DNA of 64,000 nucleotides from Escherichia coli (lineage in GTDB: Bacteria; Pseudomonadota; Gammaproteobacteria; Enterobacterales; Enterobacteriaceae): the NCBI RefSeq assembly GCF_003334765.1, contig NZ_QOWT01000005.1. One strand, 5' to 3'. Of this stretch, positions 14,757 through 20,357 are shown piece after piece (the first letter of the stretch is position 1; the number at the start of each line of letters is the position of its first letter). Under the pieces are notes generated by a model. The model searched no databases, had not been told where the DNA came from, and saw nothing but the letters and a program-made list of their open reading frames with translations. The translations under genes were made by a program, and so were the position numbers.

Positions 14757-15929
14757 TTACTGCTTCAGAGTAGCAAATGCCTGAATGATGGCATCGATTT
14801 GCTCATGACTGTGGGCAGCGTTTACGCTACAGCGCAGCAGAGTGATGCCTGCAGGCGCGGCAGGTGGCAGGATAAGATTCACATAAACGCCCAGCGAAAT
14901 AAGCTCGCGCCAGATGCGTAAACCGTCCTCTTTCGAACCGATTATTACCGGCACTACCGGGCTAATATGTGAACTTAACTCATAACCCAGTTTTTGCAGA
15001 CCGTCATACAGATGGTTGGCGTTATCCATCAGCTTTTGCCGCAGCTCTGGTTGTGAGGCAATGGTTCTTAACGACGAGCGCACGGTCGCAATGCAGGACG
15101 GAGAAGGAGAGGCGGTAAAAATATACGGGCGGCTGCCGTAGCGCAACACTTCCATCGCTTCCGAACCGACAGCAAAACCGCCAATCGAGGCCAGACTTTT
15201 ACTGAAAGTACCAACGATAATATCCACATCATCTTCAACGCCAACGGCTTCAGCCAGTCCGCGCCCCGTTGCGCCTAACACGCCAAACGAATGCGCTTCA
15301 TCGACAATCAAATAACCACCGAGACGACGTTTGATATCAACAATTTCCGCTAACGGCGCAACGTCACCGAGCATGCTGTAGATGCCCTCAACGATGATAA
15401 TCGCCTCTTTCGCCCGTTCACCGAGGCGAACCATGCGCCGTTCCAGATCTTTAGCATCGTTATGGCGGAAACGAATAATTTCCGCGCCACCGAGAGAACA
15501 GGCGTCATAAATACTGGCGTGGCTGTCGGCATCCAGTAACACCACGGCGTTATGGTCGGCAAGTGCGCTGATGACGCCTAAATTAGCGGTATAACCGGTT
15601 GAAAAAACGATAGCGGTAGGGCGATTGAAAAACTCGGCAATCTCTTTCTCTAACGCCAGGTGCGGCGCATAACTGCCGTTTGCCATACGAGAACCGGTGG
15701 TGCCGGTGCCTTGGGCCGCTAACGCTGCCTGACCTTCGGCGATGGCATCATGATTAAAGGTTAAACCGAGATAATTATTGGTCCCGGCCAGAATCACTTT
15801 TTTATTGCCGATCCGACCTTCGGTGGCGGAATACACTTCATCAATACAGGTGCCAAACGGTGTTAACCCGTTGTCACTAAATTGCAGTCGCTCGCCAGCA
15901 AGGCGCGCATATTTATCGTATAGCCCCAT
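14757..15929 (-). CDS. PLP-dependent alpha-oxoamine synthase, serine-palmitoyltransferase-like (390 aa)
   Basis: VDEAHSFGVLGATGRG and GTFSKSLASIGGF (PLP lysine) are hallmark AOS-family strings. As I recall them, they are closest to bacterial Spt. Confidence 0.85.
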   Translation of the reverse strand: MGLYDKYARLAGERLQFSDNGLTPFGTCIDEVYSATEGRIGNKKVILAGTNNYLGLTFNHDAIAEGQAALAAQGTGTTGSRMANGSYAPHLALEKEIAEFFNRPTAIVFSTGYTANLGVISALADHNAVVLLDADSHASIYDACSLGGAEIIRFRHNDAKDLERRMVRLGERAKEAIIIVEGIYSMLGDVAPLAEIVDIKRRLGGYLIVDEAHSFGVLGATGRGLAEAVGVEDDVDIIVGTFSKSLASIGGFAVGSEAMEVLRYGSRPYIFTASPSPSCIATVRSSLRTIASQPELRQKLMDNANHLYDGLQKLGYELSSHISPVVPVIIGSKEDGLRIWRELISLGVYVNLILPPAAPAGITLLRCSVNAAHSHEQIDAIIQAFATLKQ

Positions 15930-16177
15930 TATTTATTCTCCAGCCATGGAAGTAGAGTTTCCATTAATTGCGCAGGGGTTTTGACATCCAGCAGAATATT
16001 AATAGGAATGGAAATATCGAATCTGTCTTCCAGCATCATTAAGAGATCCATCACTTTGATCGACTCCAGGCCAAGATCGTTGACGAGATCGCTGTCGGGC
16101 TTAATTTCCACACCGTTTTCGACCAAATCCTGTAAACAGGAAAGGATGTAATCCATTACTATTTCACGATTTACCAT
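15929..16177 (-). CDS. acyl carrier protein (82 aa)
   Basis: DLGLESIKVMDLLMMLEDRF is a phosphopantetheine-attachment motif. Its stop overlaps the downstream start (TAATG). Confidence 0.85.
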   Translation of the reverse strand: MVNREIVMDYILSCLQDLVENGVEIKPDSDLVNDLGLESIKVMDLLMMLEDRFDISIPINILLDVKTPAQLMETLLPWLENK

Positions 16178-16208
16178 AGAAACGTTAACACACCTTTAAA
16201 CAAGACAA

Positions 16209-18844: not shown

Positions 18845-19214
18845 ATACACCACGAAAAAATTGGATATCAAAAATAAAATGACAATAATGCGGTGGATTA
18901 TATAGGCATAAAAGATAAATGAGATAGTATTTTCATCAGTGTGAAAATGAACATTGATTTAAATAATGAATTTGAGTTTTTTGTTTTTATTGTGAATGAT
19001 ATTTAATTTATGAATATATTAAGAAGGAGCCTTGTCCGGTCGCCTTAAATCGACAAAAGGCATTGTGGCGCTTCTGTGTAGTCTCTGACCTTATCGTAAT
19101 CATTAATAAATACTATTTATTCGTCGTTTGTATTCATTGGGTTGATTATTAAGGTGCCGTTCGTTGCTGTTGCAACCTGTTTGTCACCGTTAATTATTTG
19201 TTACCCACAGAACT
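18845..19214. promoter_or_regulatory. AT-rich divergent promoter region (lipid operon / yghO)
   Basis: 370-bp strongly AT-rich spacer between divergent starts. No sites were mapped. Confidence 0.4.
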
Positions 19215-20357
19215 ATGGAATGCGATCTGCTGATGATTAAAATTGAAAAAGTAATTAATAAAAATGACCTTAAGGCATTTATCGCTTTTCCGTCATCACT
19301 TTATCCCGACGATCCAAACTGGATACCCCCTTTATTCATTGAACGCAACGAGCATTTGTCTGCGAAAAATCCGGGGACGGACCATATCATCTGGCAGGCG
19401 TGGGTGGCAAAAAAAGCGGGGCAGATAGTTGGGCGTATTACCGCGCAAATAGATACCTTGCACCGCGAGCGTTACGGCAAAGATACCGGTCATTTCGGCA
19501 TGATTGACGCCATTGATGATCCGCAGGTTTTTGCCGCGTTGTTTGGCGCAGCGGAAGCGTGGTTGAAGTCACAAGGTGCAAGTAAGATCAGCGGGCCTTT
19601 CAGCCTGAATATCAATCAGGAAAGCGGATTACTGATTGAAGGTTTTGACACTCCGCCCTGTGCGATGATGCCACACGGCAAACCGTGGTATGCCGCGCAT
19701 ATTGAACAACTGGGTTATCACAAAGGCATTGATTTACTGGCGTGGTGGATGCAGCGAACCGATCTCACTTTCTCTCCGGCGCTAAAAAAACTGATGGATC
19801 AGGTGCGCAAAAAAGTGACCATTCGCTGCATCAATCGCCAGCGGTTTGCCGAAGAGATGCAGATCCTGCGTGAGATTTTCAATTCTGGCTGGCAGCACAA
19901 CTGGGGATTTGTGCCGTTTACCGAACATGAATTCGCGACCATGGGCGATCAACTTAAATATCTGGTGCCGGACGATATGATCTACATCGCTGAGATTGAT
20001 TCTGCACCCTGCGCGTTTATTGTCGGCTTGCCAAACATCAACGAGGCGATTGCCGATCTGAACGGATCGCTCTTTCCCTTCGGCTGGGCAAAATTGCTGT
20101 GGCGTTTAAAAGTCAGCGGTGTGCGAACTGCGCGAGTACCGCTGATGGGCGTGCGGGACGAGTATCAGTTCAGCCGCATCGGCCCGGTGATTGCGTTGTT
20201 ATTGATTGAAGCCTTACGCGATCCGTTTGCCCGCCGGAAGATCGATGCGCTGGAGATGTCATGGATCCTCGAAACCAATACAGGCATGAATAACATGCTG
20301 GAACGCATTGGGGCAGAGCCGTACAAGCGTTACCGATTGTATGAAAAGCAGATTTAA
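19215..20357 (+). CDS. yghO: GNAT-family N-acyltransferase, apparently intact (380 aa; start may be the downstream MIKIEK)
   Basis: Position next to glcC matches yghO. The GNAT fold assignment is from recall of the yghO annotation, not from a motif I can point to. Confidence 0.7.
   Translation: MECDLLMIKIEKVINKNDLKAFIAFPSSLYPDDPNWIPPLFIERNEHLSAKNPGTDHIIWQAWVAKKAGQIVGRITAQIDTLHRERYGKDTGHFGMIDAIDDPQVFAALFGAAEAWLKSQGASKISGPFSLNINQESGLLIEGFDTPPCAMMPHGKPWYAAHIEQLGYHKGIDLLAWWMQRTDLTFSPALKKLMDQVRKKVTIRCINRQRFAEEMQILREIFNSGWQHNWGFVPFTEHEFATMGDQLKYLVPDDMIYIAEIDSAPCAFIVGLPNINEAIADLNGSLFPFGWAKLLWRLKVSGVRTARVPLMGVRDEYQFSRIGPVIALLLIEALRDPFARRKIDALEMSWILETNTGMNNMLERIGAEPYKRYRLYEKQI

Follow-up and report, generated by a model that had tools for sequence, protein, structure and literature searches.

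The present study concerns a 64,000-nucleotide stretch of Escherichia coli DNA (contig NZ_QOWT01000005.1 of assembly GCF_003334765.1), referred to below as the window and numbered from its first letter. Five of its genes make up a locus that we believe, with a probability of roughly 0.85, to be orthologous to the ceramide (sphingolipid) synthesis locus of Proteobacteria. Four of them lie on the minus strand: aasR (17120-18844), for a 574-aa fatty acyl-AMP ligase for AcpR loading; a gene for a 304-aa extended short-chain dehydrogenase/reductase (SDR) of the CerR/Epi type (16209-17123), predicted to reduce the 3-keto group of the sphingoid backbone; acpR (15929-16177), for a dedicated acyl carrier protein (ACP) of 82 aa with Ser39 in a DLGLESI motif; and spt (14757-15929), for a 390-aa serine palmitoyltransferase (SPT) of the ACP-dependent (Rhodobacteria) type, which uses pyridoxal phosphate (PLP). 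The fifth, yghO (19215-20357, plus strand), encodes a tandem-GNAT N-acyltransferase of the bCerS/Aca type, 380 aa long as annotated. The cluster has been published since 2022, when Padilla-Gomez et al. described it in E. coli BL21(DE3) as aasR/epi/acpR/spt together with aca, the gene here called yghO (PMC9386255). RefSeq already names spt 'spt: serine palmitoyltransferase' by way of an NCBIfam equivalog model. Our analysis adds confirmation and some context statistics, and no new object.

The locus was first picked out in a reading of the window made without database searches (the sequence-only reading), which described four co-oriented minus-strand genes divergent from yghO and linked by start/stop overlaps. 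All four are present in the six-frame list of open reading frames (ORFs). Overlaps join the ligase stop to the SDR start (ATGA, 17123-17120) and the ACP stop to the spt start (TAATG, 15931-15927), while the SDR gene and acpR are separated by a gap of 31 nt. The coordinates of aasR assume its ATG start, as in RefSeq; an alternative upstream start is the TTG at 18871. Between aasR and yghO lies a shared spacer of 370 bp (18845-19214), which we infer to be a candidate control region. As described, it is AT-rich, with 31.6% G+C against 52% in the operon. No convincing sigma-70 consensus was found in the spacer on the relevant strands, matches in the scan being no commoner than in shuffled sequence, and an Rfam scan of 7000-21500 returned nothing near any gathering score. 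At the other end of the operon, a terminator hairpin (14724-14750) separates the stop of spt from that of the convergent gene lptG2. It had been called a perfect bidirectional terminator. The G+C-rich stem of 10 bp is perfect, and a U-rich tail, of moderate quality, is found on the minus-strand version only; a terminator that works in both directions is plausible. Folding gave −33.3 kcal/mol (z −6.5) for the minus-strand RNA, where a terminator scan also flagged the hairpin, and −21.9 kcal/mol (z −4.5) for the plus-strand RNA.

In BL21(DE3) the same chromosomal locus holds the same genes in the same order and with the same neighbours, as ECD_02850 (aca/yghO), ECD_02851 (aasR), ECD_02852 (epi), ECD_02853 (acpR) and ECD_02854 (spt) (PMC9386255). 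The two sets of proteins differ only as alleles do: identity is 100% for YghO (a single RefSeq accession) and for AcpR (AcpREc in BL21), 99.2% for Spt (the assayed SPTEc), 97.7% for AasR (AasREc) and 95.7% for the SDR. The window has in addition a G+C-rich element, about 70 bp long, that separates yghO from glcC. The window is 100% identical to strain B771.

Spt scored 599.4 bits against NF047599, the NCBIfam equivalog model for serine palmitoyltransferase (cutoff 500), and stayed below cutoff on the rival models for BioF (334 bits, cutoff 426) and Kbl (297 bits, cutoff 460); it also failed those for CqsA (222 bits) and ALAS (219 bits). Against solved structures, the Sphingomonas SPTs gave 375 bits over the full length and the Sphingobacterium SPT 266 bits, whereas the Kbl, BioF, ALAS and CqsA structures together spanned 126-202 bits (Kbl 201, BioF 175-182, CqsA 126) and cysteate acyltransferase gave about 200 bits. 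The NF047599 score and the ranking of the PDB structures agree with the earlier impression that the enzyme is nearer to Sphingomonas SPT than to BioF or Kbl. When a position inside BioF or Kbl was checked for directly, both kinds of score placed Spt outside the two families. Its motifs VDEAHSFGVLG (209-219) and GTFSKSLASIGGF (240-252) were found where expected, as was every motif that the sequence-only reading had quoted for any of the proteins.

The best solved relatives of Spt are the enzymes of Sphingomonas paucimobilis and S. wittichii (PDB 2JG2, 2X8U). Residues H137, D210, H213, K244 and R366 of E. coli Spt correspond to the catalytic and PLP-binding residues H159, D231, H234, K265 (the PLP lysine) and R390 of the S. 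paucimobilis enzyme, and 48-49 of the 49 homologues aligned share the residues at these positions. R378 of the S. paucimobilis RPPATP loop, which we take to contact the serine carboxylate, is replaced by Leu in the E. coli protein, as it is in most ACP-linked homologues. Since 46 of the 49 clade sequences have a hydrophobic residue here (L, V, I, F or M), Leu looks like a trait of the clade and Arg like a trait of Sphingomonas. We considered the Leu as evidence against the use of serine and rejected it on the ground that such a substitution is usual in this group. In assays with L-[14C]serine, SPTEc preferred acyl-AcpR over acyl-CoA, and from palmitoyl-AcpR and L-[14C]serine it formed in vitro a product that co-migrated with 3-oxo-sphinganine on thin-layer chromatography (TLC) (PMC9386255).

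AasR scored 871 bits against NF006624, the NCBIfam model for fatty acyl-AMP ligase (cutoff 600), and contains YTSGSTRFPRG at 181-191 and GRIKDLIIIRGRNIWPQDIE at 456-475. AcpR matched the PP-binding family of Pfam (E 1.3e-13), carries DLGLESIKVMDL at 34-45 and fell below every NCBIfam cutoff for the housekeeping ACP (AcpP). Labelling in vivo with beta-[3H]alanine has established that AcpREc carries 4'-phosphopantetheine, and AasREc allowed 3-oxo-sphinganine to be formed in vivo only together with its cognate AcpREc; acylation in vitro of AcpR, and not of CoA or AcpP, has been demonstrated for the Caulobacter AasR (PMC9386255). Co-expression of AasREc, AcpREc and SPTEc yielded a lipid migrating like 3-oxo-sphinganine (PMC9386255). 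The sequence-only reading knew of no demonstrated product for the locus, a statement that this lipid makes outdated. It had also offered, as its alternative, a different N-acyl amino-lipid or amino-alcohol built on glycine or alanine; the published product and the use of L-[14C]serine by SPTEc together disfavour this.

The SDR contains a GxxGxxG motif (GATGFIG, 9-15) and a YxxxK motif (YANSK, 122-126), and matched the Epimerase family of Pfam (E 5.9e-23). Its gene sits between aasR and acpR, the same position as in Caulobacter. By inspection the protein has no obvious signal peptide, because the Rossmann motif starts as early as residue 9; Caulobacter CerR has been reported as periplasmic.

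YghO gave no Pfam or NCBIfam match even at E ≤ 1, and the claim that it is a GNAT was therefore tested by structure. A first AlphaFold2 model, built on 18 close homologues, was discarded (mean predicted local distance difference test score, pLDDT, of 57). The model built on 40 diverse homologues reached a pLDDT of 94.6 and a predicted template-modelling score of 0.91 and has a tandem-GNAT acyltransferase fold, in keeping with the claim. The label given to YghO in K-12, 'putative DNA-binding transcriptional regulator', is at odds with such a fold. Met7 (position 19233) is invariant among 18 enterobacterial YghO homologues, most homologues do not have the first six residues, and residues ahead of position 5 are disordered in the model. 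Translation of yghO probably begins at 19233, a correction of the annotated 19215.

That the five functions match those of the ceramide pathway of Caulobacter crescentus had been proposed from the window, and is stated by Padilla-Gomez et al. for BL21, with identities of 34-53% to CC_1162-1165 and CC_1154 (PMC9386255). The Caulobacter genes are CC_1165 (aasR), CC_1164 (cerR), CC_1163 (acpR), CC_1162 (spt) and CC_1154 (bcerS). The BL21 proteins compare with their counterparts as follows: Spt 53% (E 4e-144), AasR 42% (E 1e-155), AcpR 41% (E 3e-08), the SDR 34% (E 7e-38) and YghO 44% over 98% coverage (E 1e-107), a published BLAST result (PMC9386255, Table S2). Among the genomes compared in that work, C. 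crescentus and E. coli BL21 were the only ones with the five dihydroceramide genes in a cluster (PMC9386255). Caulobacter has one orthologue of each synthesis gene and of both permease genes described below, and shares the order aasR-cerR-acpR-spt with E. coli. The E. coli locus lacks lptC2 and carries yghQRST, an ORF of 274 aa and a gene of the YtfJ family. For Caulobacter, in contrast to E. coli, the native production of sphingolipids is proven.

We also examined the context of yghO homologues in other bacteria. A search with a 10-sequence alignment supplied the best 80 loci, one genome per species, and the counts given here cover the 77 outside Escherichia and Citrobacter, 41 of which have full 10-kb flanks. 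C. crescentus is not among the best 80, and the direct comparison with it consequently rests on the published Table S2. Of the 41 full-flank loci, 31 have a homologue of spt within 10 kb of the yghO homologue, as have 44 of the 77 overall. An ACP gene adjoins spt in 39 loci, aasR is linked in 39, an SDR gene is near the yghO homologue in 37/77, and the divergent aasR/yghO layout recurs in 15/77. Across Enterobacterales the synteny is kept. The closest loci outside that order, with identities of 45-68%, are those of Pseudomonas luteola and Azorhizophilus (Azotobacter group). They are laid out as in E. coli, with a divergent yghO homologue, aasR-sdr-acp-spt and lptF2/lptG2, except that the last two follow the yghO homologue, unlike in E. 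coli.

In the window, lptF2 (12576-13646) and lptG2 (13643-14722) lie on the plus strand, directly adjoining the spt operon and convergent on it. LptF2 scored 320 bits against TIGR04407 (cutoff 230) and LptG2 305 bits against TIGR04408 (cutoff 240); they are an LptF-family permease, predicted to be a subunit of a sphingolipid exporter, and its LptG-family partner. The housekeeping lptFG genes of E. coli lie elsewhere on the chromosome, which makes this pair a second copy. Homologues of lptF2 stand beside those of yghO in 24 of the 77 loci (directly downstream in 16), homologues of lptG2 occur in 29/77, and 17-21 of the 41 full-flank loci hold the pair. The sphingolipid locus of Caulobacter likewise encodes LptF2 and LptG2 (CC_1156/1155). 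A 2026 preprint implicates these Caulobacter proteins in sphingolipid transport and reports that they bind LptB; in its Figure 2B the sphingolipid operons of E. coli UTI89 are drawn alongside, with lptF2/lptG2.

The pathway that we propose would begin with AasR, which would adenylate a free fatty acid and load it onto AcpR. Spt would then condense acyl-AcpR with L-serine to give 3-oxo-sphinganine. For the BL21 proteins, 97.7-100% identical to their counterparts in the window, both steps have been shown by experiment (PMC9386255). By orthology and gene context, YghO, of the bCerS/Aca type, would N-acylate the long-chain base, and the CerR-type SDR would reduce the 3-keto group, giving dihydroceramide. 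Which of acylation and reduction comes first is a matter of dispute even for Caulobacter. Finally, by analogy with Caulobacter, LptF2 and LptG2 together with the housekeeping LptB probably form an ATP-binding cassette (ABC) extractor that would move the lipid toward the outer membrane.

Several points weigh against ceramide synthesis by this locus. No ceramide or sphingolipid made by E. coli's own genes has been reported in the searchable literature. BL21 with empty vectors, the chromosomal locus being present, gave no 3-oxo-sphinganine on TLC, and the products of the E. coli enzymes were identified by TLC co-migration (PMC9386255). The locus appears to be silent in laboratory cultures of BL21. 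Acylation by E. coli YghO and reduction by the SDR are predicted from orthology and context, and the SDR reaches no family cutoff in NCBIfam, which holds no curated CerR model. The clusters of P. luteola and Azorhizophilus also include extra genes that have no homologue in the 64-kb window; these are taken to be head-group genes for ceramide-phosphoglycerate, the Caulobacter genes themselves not having been compared.

Part of this evidence bears on the first of two other explanations, in which the locus makes a related but different lipid and 'ceramide' is the wrong end product for E. coli. Examples would be an N-acyl 3-keto long-chain base left unreduced, a 1-deoxy base with alanine as its precursor or an amino-ketone lipid derived from glycine. 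The TLC experiments with E. coli proteins cover the first step only, the serine-contacting R378 of Sphingomonas is Leu in E. coli Spt, the SDR scores below all curated family cutoffs, and the accessory genes differ from those of Caulobacter-type loci. However, nearly all members of the clade have a hydrophobic residue in place of R378, and E. coli has all five orthologues, arranged as in Caulobacter. We consider a different end product improbable, and ceramide remains by far our preferred assignment.

The state of the locus in the E. coli population bears on the second explanation, namely that the genes are a cryptic remnant whose intact frames are never usefully expressed, so that E. coli is in effect free of sphingolipids. 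At a coverage of ≥80%, the operon is found in 4068 of 5426 complete E. coli genomes. Pairwise ratios of nonsynonymous to synonymous substitution (dN/dS) were 0.03-0.14 for all genes tested, in comparisons with BL21, another Escherichia species, Citrobacter and Serratia, which argues against a decaying remnant; in most E. coli, purifying selection maintains the locus. The sequence-only reading had supposed that K-12 lacks the operon, and it does. In MG1655 the insertion sequence IS5LO is flanked by what is left of two genes, a yghO disrupted at its 5' end and a yghQ truncated at its 3' end (NC_000913 3129043-3132408, corresponding to about 10870-19255 of the window). From this arrangement it follows that K-12 lost everything in between through an IS5-associated deletion: the 274-aa ORF, the ytfJ-like gene, lptF2, lptG2, spt, acpR, the SDR gene and aasR. 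The absence of a product in BL21 with empty vectors, the viability of K-12 in the laboratory after this loss, the roughly one quarter of complete genomes without the operon and an AT-rich promoter region of a kind that may mark silenced DNA would all suit a remnant, but this is the least probable explanation of those considered, given dN/dS that is low for every gene, whether compared within Escherichia or with Citrobacter and Serratia, synteny conserved across Enterobacterales and full-length copies in so many genomes.

If the ceramide assignment is correct, the textbook view of E. coli as free of sphingolipids would largely be due to the loss of the locus in K-12, most natural, commensal and pathogenic isolates having retained selected and intact genes for a ceramide pathway and for an Lpt-like exporter. 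Expression in the host would add a class of bioactive lipid to the surface of a major organism of the gut and urinary tract. It would also bear on the biology of the outer membrane and on studies of sphingolipid enzymes that rely on BL21 being a 'clean' background. Whether E. coli natively produces sphingolipids is a real question, and one that the field already holds.

Upstream of lptF2, a set of candidate accessory genes extends from 7385 to 12545. The first three, yghT (minus strand), yghS and yghR (7385-9754), encode paralogous P-loop proteins resembling nucleoside monophosphate (NMP) kinases, with mutual identities of 33-44%. Two of the three carry the RefSeq name 'dTMP kinase', at odds with TIGR00041 scores of only 24-33 bits (cutoff 83). 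No solved structural relative was found for YghR/S/T. Kinship with CpgB, the ceramide kinase of Caulobacter, was considered and rejected: CpgB resembles diacylglycerol (DAG) kinases and has a GGDG motif, whereas YghR/S/T are P-loop proteins. The remaining genes (9800-12545), directly upstream of lptF2, are yghQ, whose product weakly matches the MOP flippase family (MOP/Wzx-like), the 274-aa ORF, which has no family in Pfam or NCBIfam, and the YtfJ-family gene, whose product has a signal peptide.

It is possible, though we consider it doubtful, that the functional unit spans about 7385-20357, that in Enterobacterales it differs in kind from the Caulobacter system, and that YghR/S/T, YghQ, the product of the 274-aa ORF and the YtfJ-family protein modify and export a putative E. 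coli sphingolipid. The idea arises because in Escherichia, Citrobacter and Serratia the spt operon is accompanied by the accessory genes, in differing arrangements, because yghQ, the 274-aa ORF and ytfJ are under purifying selection (dN/dS again 0.03-0.14), and because the accessory genes occupy the place of the extra cluster genes of other bacteria. They adjoin the spt operon in Citrobacter and, in a different order, in Serratia liquefaciens. Citrobacter keeps yghQ, the 274-aa ORF and ytfJ; Serratia also has yghQ and the 274-aa ORF, and there the yghR/S/T group stays next to the spt operon. In the 77 loci outside Escherichia and Citrobacter the accessory genes are essentially absent: the 274-aa ORF and ytfJ do not occur in non-enterobacterial bCerS loci, and yghQ has weak matches (25-34%) in 6/77. 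The case for a larger unit is one of linkage only. Were it real, the head group would be unlike ceramide-phosphoglycerate, for example that of a phosphorylated ceramide made by a new family of lipid kinases, and the lipid would be made only under conditions outside laboratory use.

Directly downstream of its yghO homologue, S. liquefaciens has a gene for a 120-aa DAGK_prokar protein, a lipid kinase of the DgkA type (11354-11716 of the Serratia sequence), which may be an ordinary dgkA or may be linked to the lipid pathway. In the window, the convergent stops of yghO and glcC are separated by the G+C-rich element of about 70 bp (20358-20432), which includes CCCTCGGGGAAAGGGTTAGGGTGAGGGTGAA at 20394-20424. 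The corresponding gap in BL21 is only 7 nt. The element looks like a small intergenic repeat and is present in the window as a single copy. Beyond 20433, the window continues to 64000 with glcC and glcDEFGBA, sslE with the gsp operon for a type II secretion system (T2SS-beta), and a capsule/polysaccharide block interrupted by a transposase of the IS3 family.

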